Source: a virus | Direction: 5' to 3' (one strand) | UHGV virus genome: UHGV-0064883 | DNA length: 64,000 bases | Part shown: piece by piece, positions 10,703-63,742 of the stretch | How the letters are laid out: every line of letters begins with the position of its first letter | How positions within the stretch are numbered: position 1 is the stretch's first letter | The notes under the pieces: model-generated | Databases searched by the model: none | Seen by the model: only the letters and a program-made list of their open reading frames with translations | What the model was told of the DNA's origin: nothing | Translations under genes and position numbers: made by a program

Positions 10703-10721
10703 ATTTGCAATCATTGCAAAT
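10703..10721. repeat. 19-bp palindrome ATTTGCAATCATTGCAAAT (copy 2)
   Basis: Followed by TTCAGAAAT, then the GT25 gene start. Confidence 0.9.
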
Positions 10722-10773
10722 TTCAGAAATCAATGTTGCCCATGAAAATTCAGGCGGCTATAGTGTCAAAGAC

Positions 10774-11826: not shown

Positions 11827-11848
11827 TTCTTTTTCCACGCACATTACT

Positions 11849-12889
11849 ATGGATTATTTATTTCCGCATTATTTTGACCGTATTGTCGTCATCAATCTCG
11901 CCAAAAACCCCGAACGGTTCACCCGCATTGCCGACGAGCTGAAACATAAGTGCCTGGCCGGGCCGGATGATATTGTCAGGCATGAAGCCGTGCATGGGGA
12001 TTCCATGCCGCACCCGGCATGGTACAGGGCCGGAAACGGAGCATGGGGGTGCTTATCCAGCCACATTGAGGTGCTGGAAGATGCCTGGAATACCGGAAGC
12101 GAGCATACTCTGATTATTGAGGATGACACCGTATTCGCCGACGACCTTTTGACGCGGTTCCCGGAAATCATGAAAGAAGTTCCGAAGGAATACGGGCAGC
12201 TGTATCTTGGAGGCCAGCACCAGCAGGCCCCGGAAGCCCTGTCTGACACGTTGTGGCGCGGCACGTCCATCAACCGGACGCACTGCTACGCCGTCACCCG
12301 GAAATTCATTCCGGAAATCCTCGCCCACATCATGGACTGGGACACCCACATCAAGGCTGCGGGAAACCCGCTCCATATCGACCACACGCTGGAAATCGGA
12401 CACCAGCGCCGGTACTGGCCCGTGTTCTGCCCCCGGTTCTGGTTCGCCGGGCAGGGAGAAAACCAATCCGACATCAACGGCAGGCCGCAGCGGGAAATGT
12501 GGTGGGAATATTCCGTGAAACAACAACACCTGGAACTTCCCCTGCTTGTGTTGCGGACCGTTGACATGCCAAAACATATTAAAGACCTTGTGTTTGCCGG
12601 TTGGCCGACAGATTTGGACGCCCGTGGCGTGAACAAAAAAATTGAGGATGCCAAAAAAGACAAGGCCACCCTGCTTCGGGAAATAAGCTGGCTGGCTTAT
12701 GTGGGATTCCAACACCACAGCCTTCCGGCGGTGTATCTTCCGGAGCCGGAACCTACCAGCGAGCTGCAACGCCTGTGGTCCGGGGAAGTCGTTGACACGG
12801 CCCGCATGGATGACGCGGACATTCACCGGATGCACCGCATTCTGGAATTCGCCAGCAACCCGGAGATGCTAAAGTATAGGTTCCGATAG
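11849..12889 (+). CDS. Glycosyltransferase family 25 protein 2 (paralog)
   Basis: FDRIVVINLAKNPERF, GAWGCLSSHIEVLE and LIIEDDTVF motifs. C-terminal WWEYS...LPLLVL and ASNPEM motifs are shared with copy 1. Confidence 0.8.
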   Translation: MDYLFPHYFDRIVVINLAKNPERFTRIADELKHKCLAGPDDIVRHEAVHGDSMPHPAWYRAGNGAWGCLSSHIEVLEDAWNTGSEHTLIIEDDTVFADDLLTRFPEIMKEVPKEYGQLYLGGQHQQAPEALSDTLWRGTSINRTHCYAVTRKFIPEILAHIMDWDTHIKAAGNPLHIDHTLEIGHQRRYWPVFCPRFWFAGQGENQSDINGRPQREMWWEYSVKQQHLELPLLVLRTVDMPKHIKDLVFAGWPTDLDARGVNKKIEDAKKDKATLLREISWLAYVGFQHHSLPAVYLPEPEPTSELQRLWSGEVVDTARMDDADIHRMHRILEFASNPEMLKYRFR

Positions 12890-45538: not shown

Positions 45539-45918
45539 TGCGGAACACATTTTACTGGGAGGCCGCCCGGTACATATCTGTGGCAGTCATACCCGGCGCG
45601 GGGGCAAGGTATTTCACTTATGTCAACGAATCTGACGCACGCCGCCATGAAACCAGCATGAGGGAGTGGCACGGCTCCCAGGGCAGAATCACATATTACA
45701 CCATCCAAGACGCCGGGAACATCCTGCGTGCGGCGGAACATTGGACCATGTGCCGGGATTGTAAACGATGCCGCCCCTCCCAGCCCCATCTTCACCAACC
45801 AGGGAAGCAGCATGAATGCGACCTCCTGGGAACGGATGGGCACTGGTACGTGGACCCGGAGAAGGATGGCTGCACCTGGGGAACCAGAAAGGAGGAAGAA
45901 AATGAAACTAAATCCTGA
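45535..45918 (+). CDS. Small Cys-rich hypothetical protein
   Basis: 127 aa. MCRDCKRC...C cluster. ATGA overlap. Confidence 0.35.
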   Translation: MMRNTFYWEAARYISVAVIPGAGARYFTYVNESDARRHETSMREWHGSQGRITYYTIQDAGNILRAAEHWTMCRDCKRCRPSQPHLHQPGKQHECDLLGTDGHWYVDPEKDGCTWGTRKEEENETKS

Positions 45919-46258
45919 ACAGAAGACTGTTTATGAATATGGAAAAGCAGTCAAGGACCTCAGCAACATAATTAAAGAGATTCGCAATAAGGCCCGAATG
46001 CAGTTTGCAACGGAGTATCACGAGCTACCTCTACAATATCGTGCAGAGTTATTGAATTATTTTGGTTTTGAGACCTTTGTTGATGAAGTTCGATATAGGC
46101 GGGCCGAGTGCCGGGCGTTTATGGTCCCAAATGACTGTAGCAAGTGTATTCACTTTCCCAATAAATATCCCGGTTGGAAATGTGTCGGCTGTAAATGGGA
46201 TATATCTTACAAAAATGTTAAATCACGTTGGGAACCAAGAAAAGAGAACGAAAACTAA
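45901..46258 (+). CDS. Cys-cluster protein, paralog family B (with 56076-56636)
   Basis: MKLNPEQKTVYEYGKAV... parallels MKLTLEQKAFYEYGRAV at 56076. CSKCIHF...CVGC cluster. Confidence 0.4.
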
Positions 46259-46647
46259 TGAAAAAGACTATTGAACAAACAGCCTTTTATTGGTATGGGT
46301 ACTATAAAGCCTGCCTGAAATTAAAAATTAAAGAGGCCCGTAATTATGCTGAGTGTGAATACGAGAGACAATACAGTGAGCTGACACCAGCGGGGCGGGA
46401 AGAGTGTTTGGTATATGCCGGGGTTAGGTCTTACATCATTCTGACCAGAAGGGCACGCCGCTCATGCCGGTTATTTGGCATACCCAGCGCTGAACGGTCA
46501 TGCGTTAATTGCGCGTATGTCGATTTATTGCATTACCAGCCGCCATGCAATAACTGCCTTCGTTCCCCGTATGCCGTGCACGGAGAAACGACCGACGACG
46601 CCTGGAAGCCGATTGGAAAATGGCAAAACCCATACAAGCGGGCTTGA
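46258..46647 (+). CDS. Small Cys-rich hypothetical protein
   Basis: Internal ATG of ORF 46228. C-x-x-C...C-x-x-C motifs. Confidence 0.35.
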   Translation: MKKTIEQTAFYWYGYYKACLKLKIKEARNYAECEYERQYSELTPAGREECLVYAGVRSYIILTRRARRSCRLFGIPSAERSCVNCAYVDLLHYQPPCNNCLRSPYAVHGETTDDAWKPIGKWQNPYKRA

Positions 46648-47558: not shown

Positions 47559-49049
47559 ATGCACCAGGACACCGACGCAGAAAATGCCGCCAGTCAGAGC
47601 CGGTTAAATGAAACCGCCATGCTGATTCCCCGGCTGCTGTTAAAAGCCCGTACTGATTTTATTGCATTTTTGCTTGCCATTTCCGACGACGAATCCGGCT
47701 ACATCCTGTCCCGAATGCACCTGTTTATTGCGGGCAAGCTCAATGATACCGTCACCCGGAAGGACGTGCCGAGGAATTACACCATTTCCGTACCGCCCCA
47801 GCACGGGAAGTCCTCCCTGATTGTGCGGTATGTCGCGTGGCTGGTTGGGTCTTATCCCAGATTGTGCGTTGCCCTGACTGGCTTCTCCGCCGAATTGATG
47901 GGTCAGATGCTCCGGCAGGTCACATCCATTATGGATTTGCCTGTGTACCAGGTGATTTTTCCCGGTGTGAAAGTGAAGCCGAAGGATGACCGCTGGGACT
48001 ATAAACGGTTCACCAATGACGCTATTATTTATGCTAAGCCGGCAGGCTCCAAGCTGACCGGGAGGCGGGTGGACATTCTCATTATTGACGACCCCCATGC
48101 CGGGCGTGCCGAAGCCGAATCCCCCACTATCCGCAACCGCGTTGTGCAGTGGGCGGTTGCAGACTGCTTTTCCCGCCTTTCGCCCCATTGGCGGGTGTTT
48201 GTCATTGGGACCCGGTGGCATCCGGAAGACCTCATTGGACATCTCACCGGGCGGGAATACAATAAACGGCTTGAAATGCTTGGCAATACCGCCATGAAAT
48301 TTGAAGTCATCAAGATTCCCGCTATCTGCGAAGACCCGGCTACCGACCCCCTGGGGCGGAAGGCTGGGGAAGTGGCGTTTCCGGAAGAGCGTGACTTGGA
48401 GTTTTTAACGTCCATCCGTGGGGCCATGACCACGACGGAGTGGAAATCCCAGTACCAGCAGGAGCCGGTCACGTCCAAGGGCGGGCAGGTCAACGCGGAT
48501 GATTTCAACCTCATTTCCCCGGAGGAAGTGCCGTGGAGCGAACTGACGGCCATAGGCTCCGGCTGGGACTTGGCCGCAACCGACAAAACGGCATCCGACT
48601 GGACCGTGGGCGCGTGCGGGGCGCGGACAAAGGATGGCCGCCTGTATATTTTCGACCAGTTCCGCAAACAAATGCAGATTCCAAAACTGCTTCCGGCCAT
48701 TGAAGCCCGCGCCCTGGCATGGAAGGATATGTACGGGGCCAATCAGCTGGGCGTGGAAGGCGTGGGGGGCATGGTGGGATATTACCAGCAGCTTCGGCAA
48801 ATGCTTTTAGGAAAAATCAGCGTGCGGCTCAAAAATCCCCCGGTCAAAGGAGGGGGGAAACTGGTGCGGGCACAAAACTGGCTGGCCTTGGTGGAGGCAA
48901 AAAAAGTGTATCTGGTACAGGCCCCCTGGGTGCGGTCGTTTTTGGAAGAGGTGGAAGTATTCCCGGACGGGGACCACGATGACCAGGTGGACAGCGTATC
49001 CATTCTTTACGAGCTTCTGTTTCTCTCCGCCCGCATTCTGGTCGGATAA
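47559..49049 (+). CDS. terL: Terminase large subunit
   Basis: ATPase Walker A-like VPPQHGKSSL and Walker B DILIIDDPH. C-terminal RNase-H-fold nuclease region with DGDHDDQVDSVS. Confidence 0.85.
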   Translation: MHQDTDAENAASQSRLNETAMLIPRLLLKARTDFIAFLLAISDDESGYILSRMHLFIAGKLNDTVTRKDVPRNYTISVPPQHGKSSLIVRYVAWLVGSYPRLCVALTGFSAELMGQMLRQVTSIMDLPVYQVIFPGVKVKPKDDRWDYKRFTNDAIIYAKPAGSKLTGRRVDILIIDDPHAGRAEAESPTIRNRVVQWAVADCFSRLSPHWRVFVIGTRWHPEDLIGHLTGREYNKRLEMLGNTAMKFEVIKIPAICEDPATDPLGRKAGEVAFPEERDLEFLTSIRGAMTTTEWKSQYQQEPVTSKGGQVNADDFNLISPEEVPWSELTAIGSGWDLAATDKTASDWTVGACGARTKDGRLYIFDQFRKQMQIPKLLPAIEARALAWKDMYGANQLGVEGVGGMVGYYQQLRQMLLGKISVRLKNPPVKGGGKLVRAQNWLALVEAKKVYLVQAPWVRSFLEEVEVFPDGDHDDQVDSVSILYELLFLSARILVG

Positions 49050-49061
49050 GCCGCCAATAAA

Positions 49062-49080
49062 ATTTGCAATCATTGCAAAT
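49062..49080. repeat. 19-bp palindrome ATTTGCAATCATTGCAAAT (copy 14)
   Basis: 13 nt after the terL stop. Followed by TTCAGAGAC, then a 320-nt leader containing a C8 tract (49348-49355). Confidence 0.9.
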
Positions 49081-49403
49081 TTCAGAGACTACGGCCAAAA
49101 AGCTTTTTTCCTTTACTTTTCACTTTTCCGGCACAAACAATACCAGCCCATGAAGTTCCACAGCCTTTCCATGCTTTTTACGCTCCGTGGCCCTCCCCGC
49201 CCTGTTTTTCAGCTTGTCCCCCAGGCAATCCGCGAACGGTCGGATGCGCGAGGACGGGAACGCATCATTTCCCGCGTCTGAAATAAATGGCTTTCACCAT
49301 CAGGCGCAATCTCCGCATTTCCTTTTTCTGTTGCCTTCGCCGGATTGCCCCCCCCTCGTCAGGAAGGGAACGGCAAACCGTAACCATAAACAAAAAGATA
49401 GAA

Positions 49404-50279
49404 ATGACAGTTCAAACCTTACCGGCAACCGTGCCGGACAGCGTTTCTGCGACCTTGCGCGTCGTCATGAAGCCCGTGGAATCAATTCACCCCTACGAAA
49501 ATAACCCCCGCTACAACGACAGCGCGGTTCCCTACGTCAAAAACTCAATTCAGGAGTTCGGCTTCAAGGTTCCGATTATCGTCGATGAAGCCGGAAGCAT
49601 TGTCTGCGGTCACACGAGGTACAAGGCGGCCCTGGAATTGGGCATGAGCCATGTGCCTTGCATTGTCGCTTCGGATTTGACCCCAAAGCAGATTCAGGCG
49701 TTCCGCCTTGTTGATAACAAGGTGTCGGAGTTTTCAAGCTGGGATTTTTCCAAACTTGAAATTGAGATAGGGGAGCTGGATGCCGAATTTAATCTTGATG
49801 ACTTCGGTTTTTTCTCCGATTCAGAGCGGGCGGGAAGCTCGCCGGCGGATGTGGGCAGTGCCGCAGAAATGCAGGATGATACTGCGAGGGATGACCGGAA
49901 TATCTATACAGGACGCATCATTACTCCGGTTTATGAAATTACCGGGGATTGTCCAAAAACCGAAGAGCTGGTTGACCGCACCAGAGCGGAATCCCTGCTG
50001 GAAGAGATTGACCGGACCCCAGGGCTTCCGGATGCCGTGCGTGACTTTTTGCGTATTGCCGCCATGCGGCACTATGTCCTGCATTTCGACAGGATAGCCG
50101 AGTTTTACGCCCATGCGGTCCCTCCTGTGCAGCGGCTCATGGAAAACTCCTGTCTGGTCATTATTGATTATGACCGCGCCATTGAGCTTGGATATGTGCA
50201 AATGGCACGTGCCCTGGCCGATGAATACGACCGAGAATACCCGGAAGGGGAGGAACAGGAAGGAGGCGGCGAATCATGA
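49404..50279 (+). CDS. ParB-like N-terminal (ParB/Srx) nuclease-domain protein 1
   Basis: IHPYENNPRYND...GFKVPIIVDEAGSIVCGHTRYKAALELG matches the ParB N-terminal domain with its GxxR arginine motif. The C-terminal domain is shared with copy 2. Start is an internal ATG of ORF 49287. Confidence 0.65.
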   Translation: MTVQTLPATVPDSVSATLRVVMKPVESIHPYENNPRYNDSAVPYVKNSIQEFGFKVPIIVDEAGSIVCGHTRYKAALELGMSHVPCIVASDLTPKQIQAFRLVDNKVSEFSSWDFSKLEIEIGELDAEFNLDDFGFFSDSERAGSSPADVGSAAEMQDDTARDDRNIYTGRIITPVYEITGDCPKTEELVDRTRAESLLEEIDRTPGLPDAVRDFLRIAAMRHYVLHFDRIAEFYAHAVPPVQRLMENSCLVIIDYDRAIELGYVQMARALADEYDREYPEGEEQEGGGES

Positions 50280-51211
50280 TGCGGCACTCTGATTTCTGCG
50301 TCTTGATTATTTCCCATGGACGGGCCGGGAGGGTGAAAACCCTGAACGCGCTTGAGCGTTTTGGCTACAGCGGCCCCTGGTACATCGTCATCGACAATGA
50401 GGATTCACAGGCCGGAGACTACCTTAATTGCTACGGGAGTGACCACGTTGTTGTTTTTGATAAACCCCTTGAGGCATCCAGGCTGGACATAGCGGATAAT
50501 TTTACAGGCCGTCTTGGGCGCAAAAGCACCGTGTACGTACGCAATGCGAGCTTTGACATTGCCCGCCGCCTGGGATTCCGGTATTTCATGGTGCTGGACG
50601 ACGATTACGACTATTTCCGTTTCGTATTGGACAGCAACCGCCGCTATACTTGCCGGCGCTGTGTCTGTCTGGACACAATCCTTGACATCTGCCTCGATTA
50701 CTTCACCCGTACACCGGCCCTTGCCACCATAGCGTGGCTTCAAGGCGGCGACCTGCTGGGAGGGGCCAACTCCAACAGCCTTTTCAGCCTCCGGCGAAAA
50801 GCCATGAACAGTTTTATCTGTGACACGGAACGCCCCTTTTCCTTCATGGGCCGGTTTAATGAAGACGTGAACACCTACATCACTCACGGAAACCGGGGAG
50901 TGGTCATGTTCTCAATTACGGAATTGGCGCTTAACCAGGCCAGCACCCAGCAGACGGCGGGAGGGATGACGGAAGCCTACCAGGAAAACGGAACCTACGT
51001 GAAATCGTTTTACAGCGTCATGCATATGCCGTCTGCGGTGAAAATCCGGACAATGGGCGAACGTTACCGAAGAATCCACCATGCTATTACATGGAATAAT
51101 TGTGTACCGAAAATCATCCGTCCGGAGTACCGGAAACCGGATATTGTGCGGGGTGACAGGAGAAAACGCGGCAGGAGCCGAAAAAAACTGCTTGCAATTC
51201 CGGCCCCTTAA
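50276..51211 (+). CDS. GT-A-like putative nucleotide-sugar transferase 1 (DxD-like motif)
   Basis: Hydrophobic beta1 CVLIISHGR, WYIVIDNED, and FMVLDDDYDY at about aa 105, consistent with a GT-A fold DxD. ATGA overlap with the ParB-like gene. Paralog at 54342. Confidence 0.35.
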   Translation: MMRHSDFCVLIISHGRAGRVKTLNALERFGYSGPWYIVIDNEDSQAGDYLNCYGSDHVVVFDKPLEASRLDIADNFTGRLGRKSTVYVRNASFDIARRLGFRYFMVLDDDYDYFRFVLDSNRRYTCRRCVCLDTILDICLDYFTRTPALATIAWLQGGDLLGGANSNSLFSLRRKAMNSFICDTERPFSFMGRFNEDVNTYITHGNRGVVMFSITELALNQASTQQTAGGMTEAYQENGTYVKSFYSVMHMPSAVKIRTMGERYRRIHHAITWNNCVPKIIRPEYRKPDIVRGDRRKRGRSRKKLLAIPAP

Positions 51212-51396
51212 TAGGATATTGCTAGTGTTACCCGCCCAGCGGGAACCCGACAACAACCAATAATAGCTGCTATCCAGAAAAGACAAGCCCCCGGCCCCTT
51301 CCTGCATCCCACCCGCGTATCGGATTGCCTGTCATGCGTACCGCAGGAAACCGGGGGCTTGTTTTCTTTCCCCCCTCCGGGTATAACGGCGGCGTT

Positions 51397-51723
51397 ATGA
51401 TTGCCTTGAATACTCCTATTGCCACCATACCGGGGCGCCGGTACTGCATCACCACAGTATCTTCCGTCCAGGTGATTGCCGTCATTGACGACGAAGAGTT
51501 TGATTTGCTGGGGGGCCTTCCCATCACTGGCCAGGCGCAATTTGTCGCCCCCACGGACCACATTGAGGTGCGTGACGCGTCAGCCCCGGAAGAAGGGGCG
51601 GCGGCCAGCGCGTCGGAATCATCCCCGGAAACGTCAAGCGTCATGTTTGACGGCTCCGCAACGCCCCTTGCCGGAGACGCGGCTTCCGTGTCCGGGAGCA
51701 TCGTCGAAATTGTACGCAGTTGA
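51397..51723 (+). CDS. Hypothetical protein
   Basis: Internal ATG of ORF 51325. Ser/Ala-rich C-terminus. Confidence 0.3.
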   Translation: MIALNTPIATIPGRRYCITTVSSVQVIAVIDDEEFDLLGGLPITGQAQFVAPTDHIEVRDASAPEEGAAASASESSPETSSVMFDGSATPLAGDAASVSGSIVEIVRS

Positions 51724-52041
51724 CAAGCTATCCCGGATTTGGCAGGATGCTCCCCGCATGCGCGACGCGCTTCAAAGGCGTGGATTGAGGCGATAAGGGC
51801 ATGCTTCCGCAGGGTGTATGCGTGGGGGGCAAAAGAAGGCTTCCCTTGGAGGGTATAGTGAAGACTCTCCCCTTCTCCTGCGGCAAACGGGAACAACAAA
51901 AAAGGGGATGCCCTTCCTTTTTTCCAGGATGGCCGCAGTTTTCCGCTGCGGGGAAAGAAGGAAGGGTATTTTTCCGCCTCCAATTTTTCTTTTTACTCTT
52001 TGTGCCTGATGCAGATTCCTCCCCCCCCCGATAAATGCCGA

Positions 52042-52800
52042 ATGCACTGTATCATTCCCCTGAAAGCGCGCTCTATGCGTTGCCCTGGAAAAAATTTTAG
52101 AACCTGCAACCCGTATCTTTCCGGGGGCCTGATTCCGCTGTGGGAAGTGTCGGCCCGGTACGTCAGGGGCGAGGGATGGGAACCAGTTATTTCCTGTGAC
52201 AGTCCGGAATTGTTGCATGATATTTCCCGGCGCGGATATGAACGCACTGTTTTATGGCATCCCGACCCGGAATCCCCATATATGCAGGGCCACATCAGTC
52301 AGGTTGCCGTGCAGATTAACGCCGGGGATTCTGACCTGCTTTGCGTAGTCCAGGCAACTTCCCCGGTAAGACGGCCCGGACTGCTTCGGGACATGCACGC
52401 CTTGATGTCATCCGATACCAATATTCAGGTGGCTTTTACGGGAGAACACCTGAAAATTTGCGGTATCTTGAATGGCTCTCTTTTTGGGCAGGATGAAAGC
52501 CAGTCCGCCCGGCACTGGTACGACCACTATGACGGGGCGCTTATCCTGCTGCGCTATGATACTCTGAAACGCTGCCCCCCCCGAACGGTCGTGCATCCAG
52601 GGCTGCTGTCCGGCCCCGGTGATAAAGTGGCCGTGTTTTACCAGACCCTGCCCTGGTCATTTCAAATCGACACGGAAGACGATTATTCCTTTTATCTGCA
52701 AATGCGGCGGCCTGATGCGGAAAAACAGTCAGCCTTCTGCAAACGGTCGAACCCGTATCGGGTATATACAAAAAGCGCAACCCCTGATGAATTGGCATGA
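52042..52800 (+). CDS. Acylneuraminate / CMP-ulosonic-acid cytidylyltransferase-like protein (CTP_transf_3 family)
   Basis: N-terminal IIPLKARSMRCPGKNF matches the IIPARxGSKGxxxKN P-loop of CMP-NeuAc/CMP-Kdo synthetases, followed by GGLIPLWEV. VVQATSPVRRPGLL matches the hallmark QxTSPLR motif. A C9 tract lies 13 nt upstream of the ATG and another inside the CDS at 52575-52583. Confidence 0.65.
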   Translation: MHCIIPLKARSMRCPGKNFRTCNPYLSGGLIPLWEVSARYVRGEGWEPVISCDSPELLHDISRRGYERTVLWHPDPESPYMQGHISQVAVQINAGDSDLLCVVQATSPVRRPGLLRDMHALMSSDTNIQVAFTGEHLKICGILNGSLFGQDESQSARHWYDHYDGALILLRYDTLKRCPPRTVVHPGLLSGPGDKVAVFYQTLPWSFQIDTEDDYSFYLQMRRPDAEKQSAFCKRSNPYRVYTKSATPDELA

Positions 52801-53396
52801 TTGTATTGGTAGGAAATGCCCAGGAATCTGAACACCGATTAAAAGACTACTCCGCTTTTATCGACTCCGACAAGCCCCGGTTGGTGGTGAGGGTGTCGAA
52901 AATGTGCAACTACGATTCTGGAAAGACCGGAACGCGCTGTGATTGGGTGTTCCTCAACCCTAATCCCATGTACTGGACTTTTCCGCCAGAGCGCCGCCAT
53001 TGGAATGTGCTTGCCGGGGCCAGTAAAATCATCATCACCTATCCCCCTCCCGGAAGCCTGAAAGAAGGGCCTTGCATTCCTCCGTACTGGCAAAAGGAAG
53101 AATACCGGTTTCTGCACCAGCACCCTTTTCTGGAATACTTGCCGGAGGCGGTGTTCCGGGAAGGGGTGGACCGGCGGCTGACGACGTTCGGATTTGCCCT
53201 GTGGGTGCTTTCGCGGCGTTTCCCGCATGAGCAGATAGCCCTGCATGGGTGCATTACCTCGCAGGATGCCTGGCGCCGTGTCCGCTGGTGTCCCTGGCAC
53301 AATGGCGTTGGCGAGTTTGCCCTGTATGCCAATCTGTTCCGGAACGGTCGGATTTTCAGGCTGGACGGTGGCGGATTATGCTTTGATGAGGATTGA
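52797..53396 (+). CDS. Hypothetical protein translationally coupled to the cytidylyltransferase
   Basis: ATGA overlap. 199 aa with no recognised motif. Confidence 0.35.
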   Translation: MIVLVGNAQESEHRLKDYSAFIDSDKPRLVVRVSKMCNYDSGKTGTRCDWVFLNPNPMYWTFPPERRHWNVLAGASKIIITYPPPGSLKEGPCIPPYWQKEEYRFLHQHPFLEYLPEAVFREGVDRRLTTFGFALWVLSRRFPHEQIALHGCITSQDAWRRVRWCPWHNGVGEFALYANLFRNGRIFRLDGGGLCFDED

Positions 53397-53419
53397 AACC
53401 ATGCTAAGAATCCATGAGA

Positions 53420-53438
53420 ATTTGCAATCATTGCAAAT
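53420..53438. repeat. 19-bp palindrome ATTTGCAATCATTGCAAAT (copy 15)
   Basis: Ends 20 nt before the ATG of the second ParB-like gene. Confidence 0.9.
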
Positions 53439-53458
53439 TTCAAAAATCGTTTTCGCAC

Positions 53459-54295
53459 ATGGAAATTGTAGATATTGCCGTAAAAGACCTGATTCCTTAT
53501 GATAAAAATCCGCGCCGTAATGATGAAGCGGCCGTCAAGGTGGCGGAATCCATTAAACAGTTCGGTTTTAAGATTCCCCTTGTGGTTGACCGCAATAATG
53601 TTGTTGTCTGCGGGCACACCCGTTTAAAGGCCGCAAAAAAGTTAAAGCTTAAAACTGTTCCCTGTATTCTCGCTGACGATTTGTCGGAAGACCAAATCAA
53701 GGCGTTCCGTCTGGTAGATAACCGGACGGCGGAAATCGCCGAATGGGATTTTGCCCTTTTAGAAGAGGAACTGGCGGACGTGCAGCTTGACATGACCGCC
53801 TTTGATTTCGACGACCTTTTGGCAGAAGAGGAAGCCGGAAGCGAAAACAGTCAGACCCCAGTAGGAGCCGAAAGGGAGGAAGAAAGCGCATCACCGGAGT
53901 CGCAAACTGCAGAAAATATGTACACGCAGCGCATCGTCACTCCGGTTTATGAGGTTACCGGAGATTGCCCGGAAGTGTCTTCCCTGGTGGACAAGGGCAA
54001 AGCGGAAGCGCTGCTGGAATCCATTAACCAAGCCCAGGAACTCCCGGATGATGTGCGGGAGTTTTTACGCATCGCCGCCGCCAGGCATTATGTTTTGCAT
54101 TTTGACCGCATCGCTGAATACTACGCCCACGCCCCGGCCCATATTCAGCGGCTCATGGAGGATTCCTGTCTGGTTATCATTGATTTTAACAAAGCCATTG
54201 AGCAGGGATATATCCGCATGTCCGAACGATTGGCCGCGCTGGCCAGCATAGACGAACAGGGCGCAACGGAAGAAGAAGACGAAGCGGACGAATAA
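53459..54295 (+). CDS. ParB-like nuclease-domain protein 2 (diverged paralog of 49404-50279)
   Basis: LIPYDKNPRRND...GFKIPLVVDRNNVVVCGHTRLKAAKKL. The C-terminal YTQRIVTPVYEVTGDCPE...LRIAAARHYVLHFDRIAEYYAHA is about 70% identical to copy 1. Confidence 0.65.
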   Translation: MEIVDIAVKDLIPYDKNPRRNDEAAVKVAESIKQFGFKIPLVVDRNNVVVCGHTRLKAAKKLKLKTVPCILADDLSEDQIKAFRLVDNRTAEIAEWDFALLEEELADVQLDMTAFDFDDLLAEEEAGSENSQTPVGAEREEESASPESQTAENMYTQRIVTPVYEVTGDCPEVSSLVDKGKAEALLESINQAQELPDDVREFLRIAAARHYVLHFDRIAEYYAHAPAHIQRLMEDSCLVIIDFNKAIEQGYIRMSERLAALASIDEQGATEEEDEADE

Positions 54296-54341
54296 CACAG
54301 GCCGCTTTGATTTTTTTACCGCAATAACTTTTCTTTTTTTT

Positions 54342-55205
54342 ATGCTGACGCATTCCGATTTTTGCACGTTTATTTTGTCTCATGGACGGCCAAACAATAT
54401 CAGAACCCTGCACCCGTTGCTAAACACCGGAAATTACAGCGGCCCCTGGTACATCATTATCGACAATGAGGACCCCACGGCGGAAACCTACTATCAGCTT
54501 TACGGCTCCGACCGGGTAATCATGTTTGACAAGGAGGCCGAAGCCCGTCGCCTGGATATTGCAGATAATTTCGTCCACATGAGCCGCAAGACCATTACCT
54601 ATGCCCGCAATGCCTGTTATGACATTGCCAAAAACTTGGGCTACACGTATTTTTGGCAGCTGGATGACGATTATTGCCGGTTTCGGTACGTGACCGACCA
54701 GGCCGGAAAATACGTGTACCACAGCATCCGCCACCTGGACGAAGCGTTGAACGCGACCCTTGATTATTATAAAAGCGTTCCTTCCCTGACCCTGTTGTCC
54801 TGGATGCAGGGCGGGGATTTACTGGGCGGCGCCAACAGCCAGTCTCTGACCGTGGTGAAGCGAAAAGCCATGAACAGCTTTATTTGCTCTACCGAGCGCC
54901 CCATAAAGTTCCGGGGCCGGATGAATGAGGACGTAAACACCTATGTTTCCGAGGGCAACCGGGGAAAGCTCATTATGATGGCGAATTGTGCCGGCATTTT
55001 ACAGACCCCCACCCAGATTAACGACGGAGGAATCACGGAACTTTACAGGTCTTGCGGCACTTACACCAAGGCAATGTACACTGTGATGCACATGCCCTCA
55101 GTAACTACAGTGGGCATGATGCACAGCACTTTTCCCCGGATTCACCACACAATAAATTGGAACAACTGCGTTCCGAAAATTATCCGGCAGGAGCTTAAAA
55201 AATAG
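54342..55205 (+). CDS. GT-A-like putative nucleotide-sugar transferase 2 (paralog of 50276-51211)
   Basis: MLTHSDFCTFILSHGRP...WYIIIDNED...YFWQLDDDYCRF; about 55-60% identical to copy 1. Confidence 0.35.
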   Translation: MLTHSDFCTFILSHGRPNNIRTLHPLLNTGNYSGPWYIIIDNEDPTAETYYQLYGSDRVIMFDKEAEARRLDIADNFVHMSRKTITYARNACYDIAKNLGYTYFWQLDDDYCRFRYVTDQAGKYVYHSIRHLDEALNATLDYYKSVPSLTLLSWMQGGDLLGGANSQSLTVVKRKAMNSFICSTERPIKFRGRMNEDVNTYVSEGNRGKLIMMANCAGILQTPTQINDGGITELYRSCGTYTKAMYTVMHMPSVTTVGMMHSTFPRIHHTINWNNCVPKIIRQELKK

Positions 55206-55293: not shown

Positions 55294-55431
55294 AATTTGC
55301 AATCATTGCAAATTTTTTTTCTCAAAAAAGATTCTTTTTCTCTTGCAATTTATAAAAAATAATGCTAAATTACATTCATCAAAGGGAGGGAATAACTCTC
55401 CTACAGCAAAAAGCCTGAAAGTTAAAACATA
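55294..55431 (+). promoter_or_regulatory. Palindrome (copy 16) plus conserved promoter/leader cassette
   Basis: ATTTGCAATCATTGCAAAT, then TTGCAA-17nt-TAAATT, then CATTCATCAAAGGGAGGGAATAACTCTCCT (stem GGAG/CTCC). Confidence 0.55.
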
Positions 55432-56075: not shown

Positions 56076-56636
56076 ATGAAATTGACGCTTGAACAAAAAG
56101 CTTTTTATGAATATGGCCGGGCTGTGGAATCCCTCAAGAGGACAATTTACGAAACCCGCGAAACTGCTATTCAGGAATTCAAAGACCCATACCGCTTTCT
56201 TTCGACATATGACCGGAAACAGCTGATTGACGCAATGGGTCTTGCCTCGGAGATTTCTGCTGTCCGGCAGAAGCGTGCCGCGTGCAGGGCGTGGAAGTTG
56301 CTAGCACAAAGACATTGCCAGAATTGTTGTTATTACGGAAAATCCGGTAATGATGCGCCCTGCGTCGATTGTACCTTGGGAGACATTGGTGATGATACTC
56401 GTCTTAGCTGTAATTGGGCGCCAAGGCGCAAGTTCAGAAAAGGTGATATTGTACGTCGGATTGATACCGGAAAAATGCGGGCGTATGATGACCATATTCC
56501 ATTCGGAAAACTTGTAACCATACTGAAAGACGAGACTGATGACGACTGCGGAAATATCTTAGTAGGAACTAGAGAAACTACGCAGGCCGTAAAATTCTAT
56601 GAAGTGAAACTTTTTTTAAAAAAAGCTAACGATTGA
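56076..56636 (+). CDS. Cys-cluster protein, paralog family B (with 45901-46258)
   Basis: MKLTLEQKAFYEYGRAV... and a CQNCCYYG...CVDC cluster. Confidence 0.4.
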   Translation: MKLTLEQKAFYEYGRAVESLKRTIYETRETAIQEFKDPYRFLSTYDRKQLIDAMGLASEISAVRQKRAACRAWKLLAQRHCQNCCYYGKSGNDAPCVDCTLGDIGDDTRLSCNWAPRRKFRKGDIVRRIDTGKMRAYDDHIPFGKLVTILKDETDDDCGNILVGTRETTQAVKFYEVKLFLKKAND

Positions 56637-56837
56637 TTGAACATGAAAAAAGAAAAACTTAAATGTTTTATATGCGGGCAAGCAGTAGAATTAGTTGGTG
56701 ACTCTGCTCAAATAGAACGTATGGGTTATGACAGGCACAATGACCGTCCGTTTTTTAATGTCTGCCGTGAATGTCAACAACTTATCGACAAATGCCTTAT
56801 AGAATTTGAGCAGAAATTTCCAGATGAAGACGCTTAA
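56637..56837 (+). CDS. Small zinc-ribbon protein
   Basis: CFICGQ...CREC, 66 aa. Confidence 0.35.
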   Translation: MNMKKEKLKCFICGQAVELVGDSAQIERMGYDRHNDRPFFNVCRECQQLIDKCLIEFEQKFPDEDA

Positions 56838-57168
56838 ATGTCCACTGTGCGGGAGTTTGTTGAAACTGGATTTCAGTTGCAAATATATCTGCCCCAATTG
56901 CGAACTAGCTGCAAAAAGCGGAATCTCAAAAGAAGAGGCACTAAAACGTGCGGAAAAACTTATTTCTCAATTCCCACCTATCATGCGGGTATTTCCAGGA
57001 GATAAGTTAAAGTTTTTTAACCACCAAATGCGCCAGAAAATTGCATACATAGAAAAAGTTAATTTGAAGTCTGGCTGGATAAAAACAAATAAAGGATTTG
57101 CCCGCCCGGATGATGTGATTCTGTGGCCTTGGGAACTTGAACAAAAAGAAGAAGGAGATAAACAATGA
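56824..57168 (+). CDS. Zinc-ribbon protein, paralog family C (copy 2)
   Basis: MKTLKCPLCG...CPNC, then ISQFPPIMRVFPGDK, then WPWELEQ. Confidence 0.45.
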   Translation: MKTLKCPLCGSLLKLDFSCKYICPNCELAAKSGISKEEALKRAEKLISQFPPIMRVFPGDKLKFFNHQMRQKIAYIEKVNLKSGWIKTNKGFARPDDVILWPWELEQKEEGDKQ

Positions 57169-57506
57169 AAACACCTAGATGTCCGCTGTGCGGAGAAGAA
57201 TTAACGCCGTCTGTACAAAAATACGGATTTGAATACGTCTGCTGGAAGTGCAAATGGCAAACCGCTTCACTTTGCTCCACCAGGCAAGAAGCGGAAAAAA
57301 CAGCTCAAAAGCTAATCTCCAAGTTCCCTCCCATCATGAGGGTTCATCCTGGCGATAAGCTTCATGACAAGTGGTGCGGGCTGGTCACGGTTGAATCCGT
57401 CGATAAGGAAGACTGTGTAATCACAGTACGAACTGTCAAGGGGAATGTATCCCGTACTTATTGCGAGGATGTTAATGAATGGCCCTGGGAAATCGAACAA
57501 GAATAA
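57165..57506 (+). CDS. Zinc-ribbon protein, paralog family C (copy 3)
   Basis: MKTPRCPLCG...CWKC, then ISKFPPIMRVHPGDK, then WPWEIEQ. ATGA overlap with copy 2. Confidence 0.45.
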   Translation: MKTPRCPLCGEELTPSVQKYGFEYVCWKCKWQTASLCSTRQEAEKTAQKLISKFPPIMRVHPGDKLHDKWCGLVTVESVDKEDCVITVRTVKGNVSRTYCEDVNEWPWEIEQE

Positions 57507-59535: not shown

Positions 59536-61941
59536 ATGATTCAAGCCGCCCATTTTGACATCAAGACCGTTACCGGACTCCGGCAGGCGCTGGTACTGTC
59601 CGCAGAGTATGAAAATGAGCCTTTCCCTCTTGAGGGCTACACCCTCCACGGCAGTATCGGGACGTACCCAAGAATGGATTTGAAATGTTCCGTGGACGAA
59701 AACGGTCGCGCCCGGATTGAATGGGATTCCGTGCCTCCGGGGAACTGGAAATATGATGTGTTTCTCATCAGTGCCAGCAACGATGAAACCCCCCTCATGG
59801 AAGGGACTTTCACCGCCCTTCCAAGAATCACCCCCGTTCTGGACGATGAATCCGTCAATGATGAAGTCGGCGGGGTTCTGCACCTGCCTTCCGGGAACGA
59901 GGGAACTATCACCTTGGAGGTTGACGGCGGATTCGTCTCAAAAGAATATGCGGCCATTGCCAAGGATGCGGCGGAGAAGGCCCAACAGGCTCTGGAAGAC
60001 ATCAAGCAGGCATTGCAGGGCGTAGTCACGTCGATTGGCGGGGCATCCGGAGACATCCTTCTGGATTCCGGTCTGAAAATCACCGGCGACCGGGAAAAAG
60101 GCAATGTTTCCCTGTCCCTGGACGACAAAACGGTCGTATTGACCGCGGGCAGCCAGACGATTGACGGCGTGAAAACCTTTTCATCCCCTCCCGTCATTGC
60201 GTCCGCCCCCGCTTCCAACAATGAGGCGGCAAACAAGAAGTATGTCGATGACATGGCGAGCAAGGCCACCGGCACTACCATTAACGGCGTTTCCGGGAAC
60301 ATCACGCTGGACCTTCCCATGCAGCTGGACCCTGGTACCAAGTCCATGTCTGTAGATTTGAGCGGCTACGCCTCTTTGCAGACGGATAACGTTTTTGAGG
60401 GCGGCAATACGTTTATGGCCGGAATCAAGGGCCATGTCGACAGCGTAACCGGCACTGATATCCTGTACGCAACCAACGTCCCCGGCGACAGCAGCAGCGG
60501 GCATCCGGTATTGACCATTGAGCATGTCGGTTCCAGCAACGTGAGGATTTCCTCCGGAACGCATTTGCTGTTGAAAGCCAGGGGCGGCAATATTTATGCG
60601 GAATCCATCTTCACCGCGAACGGGGGCGTCAATGTTTACGGCTCCGCCCTGTTCAATTCCGGCGTAACCGCCAGCCAGTCGCTCACCGTGGGCGGCCATG
60701 CCCAGTTCAATGATACTGTGCGCGTGGAAACCGGGAAAATCGACCCCGGCAATTTCGGCCATACCTGGACATTCGGCTCACTGATTGATTCCCCCACGAC
60801 TGACGACAACAACAATCACCGGCTATGCTGCAAATCCACTTCCGACAACGGGGCCTACATCATCTACCATGAGCGGGTGATCAACGGCGCATGGATGAAA
60901 GATAAGATTATTCCCGCCTGCCAGTTCGATTTTTCCTGGCACAACGACGCCTCCCTTGTCGTCAAGGACCCCACTAAGGCGGAACAGGCCGCCAACAAAA
61001 ATTATGTGGATTCGCAGTTTAATTGCCTGTCCCTGTCCTACATGACTCTGGACACCCCGCAAACGGTCAAAGCCGAAAAAACCTTTACCGGCAACGTCAA
61101 TATCAACACCAACGGAAACAACGGCACGCTGACCCTGAAAACCAGCGGGGGCGTGGGGTATCTGGTAATGGACACCGGAGAATTCTCCATTTCTGTCGAT
61201 TATCTCACTCTGGGGGGCCAAACTTTCGTTCAAACGCTGAATGTGGCGGAATCCTCCCTGTTCACCGGGTCCGTAACCGTGAGCCAATACCTGAAAACAA
61301 GCTCGCTGGACGCTGAAAACGTGGAAGCGAGTACGATAAATCTGGTGGATAGTTATGACCTGTCCTGCATTGACCTGATGCCGTTTTACGACTCTCCAGA
61401 TACAGCAAGCCTAATCTTCCATCCCGCCCAGACCGGCCCCGGCACAACGGATTACGATATACAGCTTTATTTCACCTACGGTTCCAGCGGCGGCTTCGCG
61501 GACTGGCTGGCCGGACCATCTATACAGATGATGCGGTTCCATCCGGCAATCGGGTTTTACAATGCGGTATCTTACAGCAATCCGGTAGTGTTTCTCGGTT
61601 CAGCTACATTCAGCGCCCTGTTGAAAGCGCAGCAGGCTGAAATAGACCAGCTGAAAATCAACAGCCCGTTGTATGAGGAGGGGTTTTTAGCCTGGCAGGA
61701 TGCCGGGGGCCTCTCCATGACCCGCCCCAGCATTACGGAATCCCTATACGATGCCGACAACCCCAAAGCCATGTTGAACCGGGAAGACAACGACCAGCGC
61801 TATTTGCAGGTAAAATCCCTTACGGCGGCGGAATACGCAGCCCTCGGTTCCTACAGTCTGACAACCCTGTACCGGATTACGGATGCAGACCCCGCCGCGG
61901 TATATCTGGGGGACCTGAAATTATCCGTGGCCGCCGACTGA
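59536..61941 (+). CDS. Tail fiber protein
   Basis: 801 aa. Repeated A-x-NK-x-YVD motifs (EAANKKYVDDMA, AANKNYVDSQF) are typical of phage tail-fiber repeats. Gly/Ser/Thr/Asn-rich beta-type composition. Confidence 0.7.
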   Translation: MIQAAHFDIKTVTGLRQALVLSAEYENEPFPLEGYTLHGSIGTYPRMDLKCSVDENGRARIEWDSVPPGNWKYDVFLISASNDETPLMEGTFTALPRITPVLDDESVNDEVGGVLHLPSGNEGTITLEVDGGFVSKEYAAIAKDAAEKAQQALEDIKQALQGVVTSIGGASGDILLDSGLKITGDREKGNVSLSLDDKTVVLTAGSQTIDGVKTFSSPPVIASAPASNNEAANKKYVDDMASKATGTTINGVSGNITLDLPMQLDPGTKSMSVDLSGYASLQTDNVFEGGNTFMAGIKGHVDSVTGTDILYATNVPGDSSSGHPVLTIEHVGSSNVRISSGTHLLLKARGGNIYAESIFTANGGVNVYGSALFNSGVTASQSLTVGGHAQFNDTVRVETGKIDPGNFGHTWTFGSLIDSPTTDDNNNHRLCCKSTSDNGAYIIYHERVINGAWMKDKIIPACQFDFSWHNDASLVVKDPTKAEQAANKNYVDSQFNCLSLSYMTLDTPQTVKAEKTFTGNVNINTNGNNGTLTLKTSGGVGYLVMDTGEFSISVDYLTLGGQTFVQTLNVAESSLFTGSVTVSQYLKTSSLDAENVEASTINLVDSYDLSCIDLMPFYDSPDTASLIFHPAQTGPGTTDYDIQLYFTYGSSGGFADWLAGPSIQMMRFHPAIGFYNAVSYSNPVVFLGSATFSALLKAQQAEIDQLKINSPLYEEGFLAWQDAGGLSMTRPSITESLYDADNPKAMLNREDNDQRYLQVKSLTAAEYAALGSYSLTTLYRITDADPAAVYLGDLKLSVAAD

Positions 61942-61977: not shown

Positions 61978-62547
61978 ATGCCTATGAAAGACAACATCCT
62001 AGTGTTATGCCACAGCAACATGCACCGCAGCCCGTTCGTTGCGGAATTCATCCGGAACTCCCCCTACGGAGACAGCTATGAAGTCCGTGATGCGGGACTG
62101 CACGTCGACAAGGAGCAGCGCGTGCCCAAATCCCTTCAGCGGGCCTTCCAGACCGTCTCCCAGGGGAGCCTGAAAAGCCACAAGTCGCGCCCGGTGGGAA
62201 TCAGCGATATTCTGTGGGCAGACAAAATAATCATCATGGAGCCGGAGAACAAAAGCGACCTCCTGCAAATGCTCGGAAGCCTGCACCTCTCCGACAAGCC
62301 CCGGTACGACCACATTGTCTCCAAGATAATCTCCCTGGCCCAAATCGGCGGGAAGACAGCCGTGGACGACCCTCACCACTACTCCCCCGGAACGATCGAA
62401 TACGGAAAAGTAGTATTAAACCTCGCCTGCCTGACAGCCGTCCTTCTGGAAACGTGGGAAGCCCAGCGTTCATTGAGCGGAGGGGAAAAATCCAAAGACC
62501 GGAAACCGGACGACGCGGAATCCGCAGCAGGCCCATTCGGAGCTTGA
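61978..62547 (+). CDS. Low-molecular-weight protein-tyrosine phosphatase (LMW-PTP/ArsC-fold)
   Basis: ILVLCHSNMHRSPFVAEFI carries the C-x5-R-S P-loop signature. A downstream DP (VDDPHHYS) matches the position of the catalytic Asp. Confidence 0.65.
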   Translation: MPMKDNILVLCHSNMHRSPFVAEFIRNSPYGDSYEVRDAGLHVDKEQRVPKSLQRAFQTVSQGSLKSHKSRPVGISDILWADKIIIMEPENKSDLLQMLGSLHLSDKPRYDHIVSKIISLAQIGGKTAVDDPHHYSPGTIEYGKVVLNLACLTAVLLETWEAQRSLSGGEKSKDRKPDDAESAAGPFGA

Positions 62548-62986: not shown

Positions 62987-63742
62987 ATGCACGCCTATTT
63001 GCTCTACACACCGGGGGAAATGCTGGAAGGCGAAGACGAACTTACCGCACTGGGCTACCATGTCCATCCTTTTTTGGGCAATAATGATACGTCCGGCCTC
63101 CGGAACAAAGTCAAACACATTCCCAGCCTGGGGCATTCCGCGTCCTATTTATCAGACGGACTGGGCTACAACTGGTGCGGCCACGTCCATGCGCTCCGCG
63201 CCAACTTTGCAACCATGCTGGAAACTTACATGGATGCGGACGACCTTACTATATATGGAGAGTCGGACTGCGTGCCCGCGCCTTATCCCCCTGTGTCCGC
63301 CGACGATATTTCCTGTGTTTGTCAAGAAGCGGTTTCCCGGCATCCTGAAATCGGCATCATCCGTCTGTACCGCCGCGCCACACTATTTAACGAGCCTACC
63401 TGGTGGAACCATGCGCCCCTTGAGATTGTCCCGCTGAAAAAGGCGGCCAGAATCTCCAACATTCCTTTTACGAAATATTACTGTCAAACCCACGCCCTGA
63501 TTATCCGCAGGCACGTCCGCCAAACGGTCATCGACGCCATGCGGGATTATTATTTGCCCATTGACGTGCTCCTATCTTATTTGTCCCAGATTGGGACCGT
63601 GCCCGTGTGGCACACCAGCATCAACCTAATGCTTCAACGCCCCCACAGCACGGGAAAGAGGCTGGCGGACTGGCAGCGCAAACATTCTGTTCCGGCAGCG
63701 GACTATTGGCGCGACAGGCCCGGACTGACTGGAAAAAGGTAG
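62987..63742 (+). CDS. Hypothetical protein
   Basis: 251 aa. A C9 tract lies 35 nt upstream of the ATG. Confidence 0.4.
   Translation: MHAYLLYTPGEMLEGEDELTALGYHVHPFLGNNDTSGLRNKVKHIPSLGHSASYLSDGLGYNWCGHVHALRANFATMLETYMDADDLTIYGESDCVPAPYPPVSADDISCVCQEAVSRHPEIGIIRLYRRATLFNEPTWWNHAPLEIVPLKKAARISNIPFTKYYCQTHALIIRRHVRQTVIDAMRDYYLPIDVLLSYLSQIGTVPVWHTSINLMLQRPHSTGKRLADWQRKHSVPAADYWRDRPGLTGKR

Follow-up and report, generated by a model that had tools for sequence, protein, structure and literature searches.

Why would a tailed phage keep a sugar-activating enzyme between two copies of a gene pair that joins a ParB-like protein to a glycosyltransferase (GT)? The locus that raises this question occupies positions 49404-55205 of a 64,000-nt stretch of the virus genome UHGV-0064883 (the window), where two ParB–GT pairs enclose a cytidylyltransferase gene and the gene coupled to it. 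The reading that we favour, tentatively and with a probability of about 0.45, is that this island is composite—a glycan sialylation cassette set between two modules in each of which a ParB assists a DNA glycosyltransferase.

The source phage has a genome of ~89 kb; near-identical metagenomic contigs measure 89-92 kb, one of them with overlapping ends. The gene for the large terminase subunit (47559-49049) stands upstream of the island, whose genes all lie on the + strand. The initial annotation had described seven genes here, and their order, their coordinates and both ATGA overlaps agree with the open reading frame (ORF) list of the window. Gene calls on a near-identical contig match these positions too; gene callers place the start of the ParB1 gene at 49287, where a longer ORF begins, and that of the synthetase gene at 52009. 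The genes of the two pairs and of the cassette between them are as follows:

49404-50279, + strand: ParB-like protein 1 (PF02195, E 2.6e-7; phrog_620 over its full length, E 2e-55)
50276-51211, + strand: TAGT-family GT-A glycosyltransferase 1 (PF20691, 98.8 bits); ATGA overlap with the ParB1 gene, translationally coupled
52042-52800, + strand: divergent NeuA-like synthetase of cytidine monophosphate (CMP)-activated sugars, placed through remote homologues in the CTP_transf_3 superfamily
52797-53396, + strand: 199-aa sialyltransferase-like candidate; ATGA overlap with the synthetase gene, translationally coupled
53459-54295, + strand: ParB-like protein 2 (PF02195, E 1.8e-7; phrog_620, E 1.6e-57)
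54342-55205, + strand: TAGT-family GT-A glycosyltransferase 2 (PF20691, 109.9 bits); start 46 nt past the ParB2 stop

The glycosyltransferases of the two pairs had been called GT-A-like, and the call holds: both belong to PF20691 (TAGT), the one GT-A family known to glycosylate DNA (PMC13216743). Against a gathering cut-off of 27.5, the scores listed above correspond to E 5e-28 over model positions 3-205 of 205 for TAGT1, and to E 2e-31 over positions 3-200 of 205 for TAGT2; phrog_842 matches at E 3e-63 and E 5e-58, respectively. The DxD motif reads DDDY, and LDDDY is invariant in TAGT1, TAGT2 and Orf2 of Nocardia phage NTR1, to which TAGT1 is 47% identical. A PDB sequence search for a solved TAGT structure gave nothing meaningful.

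PF20691 also contains the T2/T6 enzyme by which glucosyl-5-hydroxymethylcytosine (glucosyl-5hmC) in DNA receives a second glucose, and DNA is the substrate of the characterised members; solitary TAGT homologues of undefined function occur in 288 of 753 GT-encoding phage genomes (PMC13216743). The window enzymes share with the T2/T6 beta-glucosyl-HMC-alpha-glucosyltransferase (HMC, hydroxymethylcytosine) and other TAGTs the same Pfam family, a GT-A fold with DxD, a phage origin and the frequent presence of two copies per genome. The differences lie in the supply of the acceptor: the T-even enzymes extend glucosyl-5hmC that derives from dCMP hydroxymethylase, whereas no dCMP hydroxymethylase is recognisable in the genome that carries the window; likewise, TET-associated TAGTs act on 5hmC made by a C5-methyltransferase and TET, neither of which is recognised in this phage genome. 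The T-even TAGTs are not among the tblastn matches at E 1e-10, and the window TAGTs therefore appear to form a separate, ParB-coupled subfamily.

Each ParB-like protein consists of an N-terminal ParB/Srx NTP-binding domain (ParB_N, residues 23-105), an acidic linker of ~40 aa with Ser and Thr (DDFGFFSDSERAGSSPADVGSAAEMQDDTARDD) and a conserved C-terminal domain (CTD) of ~100 aa. PF02195 recognises the N-domains with 31.0 and 31.6 bits against a gathering score of 26.3, and the NPR and GHTR motifs (Box I/Box II-like) are present in both translations. By their profile matches these domains look far more like the ParB domain of DNA-methyltransferase fusions than like partition ParB—phrog_498 (ParB-methyltransferase) matches at E 7e-37 and 6e-40 and the N-terminal part of the PADLOC model MTase_II at E 1e-23, whereas TIGR00180 parB_part gives 32.6 and 35.3 bits, under its curated cut-off of 58.45. 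Pfam finds no helix-turn-helix (HTH) family in either protein, and neither the ORFs of the window nor the remainder of the genome, as read from relatives, include a ParA-like gene. A defence-system reading was rejected, as the PADLOC match is confined to the ParB domain of the methyltransferase model.

ParB-like proteins had also been proposed as partners of phage DNA-modification enzymes, a view that these N-domain matches and the published work both uphold. In phages, ParB folds often occur as fusions with DNA methyltransferases (PMC12704722), and earlier workers, as quoted in PMC8256090, proposed that ParB brings modification enzymes to the DNA while it is being packaged. Experiments have shown that one subclass of phage thymine dioxygenases requires a phage ParB homologue of the same layout, in a manner specific to double-stranded DNA and to the cognate pair (O'Toole et al., PNAS 2026, PMC13229309). 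The ParBs that activate 5mYOX enzymes are described by a nucleotide-binding domain, an unstructured linker of ~30-50 aa, a CTD and the lack of a DNA-binding domain, with Asn replacing the catalytic Gln (Q52) and either His or Asp replacing the Glu of Box II (E93) (bioRxiv 10.1101/2025.08.14.668559). As read from their sequences, the window ParBs fit this layout and carry both substitutions, Asn for Q52 (NPR) and His for E93 (GHTR). The likeness to the 5mYOX–ParB pairs (PMC13229309) is thus one of layout, substitutions and motifs as described; those pairs are cognate-specific, and the window has two pairs that diverged together. The partner differs: a dioxygenase there, a glycosyltransferase here. 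In that study, moreover, glycosyltransferases were tied to the ParB-independent subclass of dioxygenases, unlike the ParB–GT pairing of the window.

The pair is widespread. Our IMG/VR sample comprises 80 loci that encode relatives of TAGT; most of these relatives are 43-51% identical to TAGT1 of the window, and they fall into 47 clusters at 70% identity. A gene with the ParB CTD lies immediately upstream of TAGT in 76 of the 80, usually overlapping the TAGT start. A recognisable ParB N-domain accompanies the CTD in 62 of these 76 loci, while five encode the CTD alone. Since these five keep the CTD beside TAGT, it is the CTD, and not a partition function, that appears to be the conserved link between the two proteins. 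Two TAGTs occur in 10 of the 80 loci. The genes that recur around the pair encode large terminase subunits (three types), portals, small HTH proteins resembling the small terminase subunit (TerS), NinG and Mu-F-like proteins; the 30 commonest neighbour families of the 80 loci include no dioxygenase, methyltransferase or thymidylate-synthase-like family.

Cultured viruses carry the pair as well—Lactobacillus phages c5, phiLdb and phi jlb1, Nocardia phage NTR1 (directly upstream of the large terminase subunit, TerL), Vibrio jumbo phages, Porphyromonas phages and the haloarchaeal virus HHTV-2. Lambdoid phages of E. coli and Salmonella show the order Q – lysis – trkG – ParB – TAGT – TerS – TerL. 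The pair is found in 1,580 of 5,426 complete E. coli genomes (~29%; 889 at a coverage of at least 80%), where its ParB is annotated ynaK; a full-length copy is 39% identical to ParB2 of the window, through the CTD. The Rac-type ynaK and its downstream gene are the same two-gene module, with a TAGT ~47% identical to TAGT2 of the window, placed between lysis/trkG and TerS/TerL; unlike the window, they form a single copy with no sugar-activation cassette. In the Rac prophage of K-12 MG1655 (L104 2878-3481), ynaK (87 aa) is a truncated remnant of the module's ParB gene. K-12 ydaY was considered as a TAGT remnant and rejected, having no similarity to TAGT. No functional study of the ynaK pair was found in the literature, and none of the literature searched describes a ParB–glycosyltransferase pairing as a functional unit. 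The survey of other phages that the initial annotation had called for thus finds the pair to be very common in viral loci, cultured viruses and E. coli genomes alike. Its remark that the arrangement is not a textbook one holds only for the juxtaposition with a CMP-sugar synthetase; the ParB–TAGT pair itself is common, and an earlier study describes DNA with Kdo (3-deoxy-D-manno-octulosonic acid)-modified cytosine (bioRxiv 10.1101/2023.12.21.572611).

In the window the pair is doubled. ParB1 and ParB2 share 51% identity and the same architecture, and the two TAGTs share 54% identity. Because each copy is, apart from its own orthologues, the closest relative of the other, the pair seems to have been duplicated as a unit, the two copies then diverging as pairs. 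Searched by blastn against cultured phages, the island gave short ParB and TAGT matches and nothing more.

Between the two pairs, the cytidylyltransferase is recognised directly by none of the family libraries: it has no Pfam match at E <= 0.1 and no family recognition in PHROGs or NCBIfam, and its weak matches, to PseF TIGR03584 (E 0.14) and to the PDB entry of NeuA 9t4z (E 0.83), both fall on the QATSP motif. The motifs on which the earlier call of a CMP-sugar synthetase had been based, MHCIIPLKARSMRCPGKNF and LLCVVQATSPVRRPG, are present in the translation. Word-indexed searches with this protein and with the 199-aa protein found only relatives of at least 66% identity (at least 70% except for fragments). 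An exhaustive HMMER search retrieved 42 remote homologues of the synthetase, 27-39% identical over residues 3-217; 27 of the 29 that were scanned match PF02348 CTP_transf_3, and hhalign joins them to the window family with a probability of 99.9% (E 1e-31). Against the PDB, the joint profile matches N. meningitidis NeuA 1eyr over its full length (E 1.4e-15) and the N-terminal half of KdsB (~1e-10). The window protein keeps the motifs PxKxxSxRxPxKN (P-loop-like), QxTSPxR and QIDTxxD, and the catalytic motifs are invariant in the alignment. Because remote homologues, profiles and motifs for CTP and sugar binding agree, we assign the product of 52042-52800 to the NeuA-like CMP-sugar synthetases as a highly divergent member, an assignment made from sequence. 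The earlier call is thereby supported through its remote homologues, and not by direct recognition.

The 199-aa protein has no direct family match; a PDB search with the protein alone gave one unrelated chance match, and the profile of its close family gave zero matches. It does match the second domain of relatives of the synthetase (phmmer E 1e-14 to 1e-4), 19 of which (376-1074 aa) contain the synthetase and this transferase domain fused, and the two coupled genes of the window look from these alignments like a split form of the fused enzyme. All 8 PDB matches of the transferase-domain profile are sialyltransferases, namely ST3Gal-I (GT29, E 0.083) and CstII (GT42, E 0.15-0.5), both aligning at sialyl-motif L, the N-terminal CMP-binding motif; one of 22 members of the domain matches PF00777 (E 3.4e-4), and N7, R161 and H168 are conserved. 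The protein is probably a sialyltransferase-like, CMP-sugar-dependent transferase. Set beside NeuA/KdsB and the GT29/GT42 enzymes, the cassette has a synthetase with the same motifs for CTP and sugar binding, although it is too divergent for direct detection by family models, and its genes are split and phage-borne. Genes for sugar synthesis of the NeuB/NeuC type were not seen, so the sugar would have to come from the host.

Three loci of fused homologues (487-1074 aa) were examined, at L097 2809-9464, L101 4434-17031 and L102 3144-13195. All are bacterial glycan clusters with neither ParB nor TAGT nearby, and they hold GT1, GT11, GT6, GT10 and Galactosyl_T genes—a gene set reminiscent of blood-group- or Lewis-type glycan synthesis. 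Chromosomal housekeeping genes flank two of the clusters; the third adjoins a serine recombinase. A member of identical length in the 90% cluster of the 487-aa fused protein is labelled Akkermansia sp., and this label is the sole hint at a host; a terminase search of GTDB genomes gave two distant matches. Among the 80 ParB–TAGT loci, the cassette occurs in three only, all from this phage lineage.

The cassette is also set apart by the elements that bound it, listed here with the remaining ORF of the island:

49062-49080, unstranded: 19-nt palindrome ATTTGCAATCATTGCAAAT, 13 nt past the terminase stop and upstream of ParB1
51325-51723, + strand: small ORF of 132 aa (the gene call on a relative, L013, starts at 51334 and gives 129 aa)
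51902-51925, + strand: terminator-like hairpin with a T-run behind it, within the 320-nt gap 5' of the synthetase gene (consensus scan)
53420-53438, unstranded: second island copy of the 19-nt palindrome, directly upstream of ParB2
55295-55313, unstranded: third island copy of the 19-nt palindrome, 90 nt past the TAGT2 stop, at the island end

The small ORF is restricted to close relatives of this phage (L014-L016 only) and has zero matches in Pfam, PHROGs, NCBIfam and PADLOC. The hairpin comes from a scan whose hit count in this region is no higher than in shuffled sequence. The palindrome, ATTTGCAAT[C/G]ATTGCAAAT, has 19 copies in the window where 0.07 would be expected by chance, starting at 2896, 6911, 10703, 13552, 15524, 18498, 24824, 26933, 32125, 35955, 36808, 41358, 43094, 44288, 49062, 53420, 55295, 59427 and 63751. 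The copies seem to sit at gene boundaries; three delimit units of the island, and the one at 49062-49080 probably marks the start of a unit. Taken together, they look like an operator or promoter element of a phage-wide regulator. An island-private parS site was rejected as an explanation, the same 19-mer being spread over the gene boundaries of the whole window.

How might these parts work? In the composite reading, each module would be a late-gene unit beside the terminase, made of a modification-type ParB (without HTH, with a partner-specific CTD) and a TAGT. Each ParB dimer would hold or activate its own TAGT on double-stranded phage DNA late in infection, and the TAGT would move a sugar from a host nucleotide-sugar onto the DNA; we infer this assistance because of the analogy with the thymine dioxygenases and their ParBs and of the DNA-acting pedigree of PF20691. 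Two copies of the module could then provide two sugars, two linkages or two sequence contexts. In the cassette, the NeuA-like synthetase would make a CMP-activated nonulosonic or ulosonic acid, which the sialyltransferase-like enzyme would transfer. Judged from gene content, the most likely role of the cassette is to cap a surface or virion glycan together with the GT11, GT25, DXD-GT and sulfation genes of the lineage; extension of a DNA-linked glycan is less likely. In our view, the cassette entered a ParB–TAGT locus that had been duplicated, and it most likely serves glycan synthesis, because its homologues lie in glycan clusters, the lineage has glycan genes of its own, the cassette is present in 3 of 80 loci, and hairpin and palindrome stand at its boundaries.

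Phage glycosyltransferases build di- and trisaccharides on 5hmC, adjacent genes having position-specific roles (Pyle et al., Cell Rep 2024; bioRxiv 10.1101/2023.12.21.572611); in some of these pathways a sugar-nucleotide enzyme encoded alongside is needed, a cytidylyltransferase among them, and the product of one GT was assigned as Kdo-modified cytosine (bioRxiv 10.1101/2023.12.21.572611). Such clusters resemble the window in their several GTs, accessory sugar-nucleotide enzymes, Kdo product and ParB and terminase neighbours. They start, however, from 5hmC made by a methyltransferase and 5mYOX, whereas no primer enzyme is recognisable in the window; and the DNA GTs tested by Pyle et al. are of the GT-A or GT-B type, whereas the enzymes of the cassette are a NeuA-like synthetase and a sialyltransferase-like transferase. 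Around 65% of ~25,000 phage GT contigs are likewise without such base-priming neighbours (bioRxiv 10.1101/2023.12.21.572611).

Several observations weigh against the composite reading. Searches of all window ORFs against Pfam and PHROGs gave no recognisable match to TET/5mYOX, C5-methyltransferase, ThyA-like hydroxymethylase or a related enzyme, and the same base-priming enzymes were not recognised in the remaining ~25 kb of the ~89-kb genome, read from relatives; a highly divergent 5mYOX could escape such searches. Small temperate phages with the pair, such as Lactobacillus c5 (31.8 kb), have been restriction-mapped, which would argue against global modification. The TAGT family is not confined to DNA, since GREB1, a TAGT-related eukaryotic domain, O-GlcNAcylates a protein (PMC7968844), and a non-DNA acceptor therefore keeps some weight. 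The cassette, for its part, is enclosed by the two modules on one strand and would equally fit a single pathway. The assignment of the 199-aa protein draws on PDB matches that are sub-significant, and its window copy has a Cys where relatives carry the Asp of a conserved LGD motif. AlphaFold2 models, built on alignments of close relatives only, are unusable, with predicted local distance difference test scores (pLDDT) of 32 for the synthetase and 30 for the 199-aa protein.

In a single pathway, the five enzymes would together assemble an acidic oligosaccharide on the phage DNA, with the ParBs loading the enzymes on the DNA; one TAGT would add the first sugar, the second would extend it, and the sialyltransferase-like enzyme would cap the chain with the CMP-activated acid. 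We consider this rather unlikely. The genes do lie tightly spaced on one strand with the cassette enclosed, an arrangement kept in all relatives, and GT-built oligosaccharides on 5hmC and Kdo-cytosine (bioRxiv 10.1101/2023.12.21.572611) give it experimental precedent; but the ParB–TAGT loci outside this one lineage do without the cassette, its three homologue contexts are clusters of fucosyl- and galactosyltransferases without ParB or TAGT, the hairpin parts module 1 from the cassette as the palindrome parts the cassette from module 2, and no source of hydroxymethyl-pyrimidine was found. The single pathway is one of the two hypotheses of the initial annotation, put there as CMP-ulosonic-acid modification of DNA by the whole island; in that form it is not supported, given the lack of a recognised base-priming enzyme in the ~89-kb genome and the glycan clusters of the cassette homologues. 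A variant in which the ParB-coupled TAGTs glycosylate DNA without hydroxymethyl-pyrimidine (on a canonical base, a DNA end or the backbone) is quite improbable to us; ParB would there be an NTP-gated clamp at packaging, the second TAGT would extend the chain and a sialic-acid-like sugar would cap it, giving "sialylated" virion DNA.

The opposite view, that DNA is not modified at all, seems about as doubtful as the single pathway. The TAGTs, like the other glycosyltransferases of the phage, would then act on proteins (for example the poly-Ser tail protein, the Ser/Thr-containing linker of ParB or proteins of packaging) or on glycans of the host envelope, while the ParB-like protein would serve as an adaptor or act separately in packaging. 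Such a view would suit the lack of a base-priming enzyme, a genome unusually rich in glycan genes whose poly-Ser tail protein adjoins two GT25 genes, the protein O-GlcNAcylation by the GREB1 domain (PMC7968844), and the place of the module in the late operon of lambdoid phages, with lysis and morphogenesis genes. It sits poorly with a partner, in 76 of 80 loci, of a ParB fold whose type of N-domain is otherwise fused to DNA methyltransferases, with a ParB of such architecture activating a DNA dioxygenase on double-stranded DNA (PMC13229309), with the presence of the pair in small phages that lack other glycan genes and share no Ser-rich proteins, and with the action of characterised PF20691 members on DNA (PMC13216743). 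The other hypothesis of the initial annotation, glycosylation of virion proteins or remodelling of host surface glycans, which this view extends to the whole island, fits the middle cassette better (given the GT11, two GT25, DXD GT, sulfotransferase and PAPS genes; PAPS, 3'-phosphoadenosine 5'-phosphosulfate) and is not favoured for the ParB–TAGT modules. Least probable is that the ParB-like genes are ordinary partition or packaging-nuclease genes, acting in plasmid-prophage segregation or in pac/cos processing, with the GT adjacency functionally meaningless. Databases do label these proteins 'ParB-like partition protein/nuclease', and terminase genes adjoin them in many phages; yet the TIGR00180 scores stay below cut-off, the proteins lack an HTH domain, no ParA turned up either in the window or in the flanking DNA as read from relatives, the genes overlap, the pairing is kept across 47 clusters and cultured bacterial and archaeal viruses, and five loci retain the CTD alone beside TAGT.

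The lineage carries further glycan genes. A GT25 pair (10705-12889, PF01755) and a poly-Ser tail protein had been noted earlier, and both are confirmed. The tail protein (7753-10233, 826 aa) has four long poly-Ser linkers and is followed directly by the two GT25 genes; the version in one relative (L007 15823-18306) shows weak BACON-domain matches. These features suggest a glycosylated or glycan-binding tail adhesin, to go by sequence. Outside the window, a gene of the fucosyltransferase family GT11 (L005 1755-2471) is flanked by those for the prohead protease and for a head-morphogenesis-like protein of 746 aa, and a 356-aa ORF that bears no annotation (L010 10980-12050) has a GT-A-like KIDDDDIYF motif, spotted by eye in the translation. 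On a near-identical contig, ~3-7 kb past the right end of the window (L001 13301-17155), there are genes for a sulfotransferase (PF03567, Sulfotransfer_2), a CysD-like PAPS_reduct protein, a CysN-like GTPase, an adenosine 5'-phosphosulfate (APS) kinase and a DXD glycosyltransferase (PF04488, Gly_transf_sug); the lineage is thus predicted to encode PAPS synthesis together with a sulfotransferase. A gene like those for low-molecular-weight phosphotyrosine phosphatases (61978-62547; PF01451, E 3.5e-5) comes right after an 801-aa tail-fibre-like gene (59536-61941), and could be linked to the regulation of capsule or polysaccharide synthesis.

Other observations concern genes elsewhere in the genome. 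Genes of 251 aa stand in tandem, ~1.67 kb apart, in two related contigs (L001 8332-9087 and 10001-10756); the downstream one is window 62987-63742, which has no family match. Cys-rich, zinc-ribbon-like paralogues form two sets (56806-57168 and 57165-57506; 45728-46258, 46228-46647 and 56076-56636), one sharing KLIS-FPPIMRV-PGDKL and the other an N-terminal EQK..YEYG.AV followed by Cys clusters, again with no family matches. A Cpn10/GroES homologue (L010 10507-10929) is present in the lineage, as is a 227-aa ORF with weak, sub-threshold PAS-fold matches (L010 13499-14182), just downstream of the portal gene.

Three things are new here: that the pair is duplicated, that a split NeuA-like/sialyltransferase-like cassette lies between its two copies, and that a family of fused synthetase–transferases is recognised in bacterial glycan clusters. 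The parts themselves are members, or divergent members, of known families, and the ParB–TAGT association can be seen in databases and had been foreseen on bioinformatic grounds. The pair is nonetheless among the commonest uncharacterised late-gene modules of tailed viruses, bacterial and archaeal, and the published framework of DNA glycosylation, which requires a 5hmC or 5-hydroxymethyluracil (5hmU) primer, fails to account for it. Intact copies in Rac-type E. coli prophages and lambdoid phages make a TAGT role without hydroxymethyl-pyrimidines directly testable. The lineage described here is the sole one found in our survey in which a duplicated pair holds an insert of a CMP-sugar synthetase and a sialyltransferase-like gene; with its fucosyl-, galactosyl- and sulfotransferases and PAPS synthesis, it may produce elaborate DNA glycans or phage-directed, host-like (mucin- or Lewis-like) glycans in the gut.

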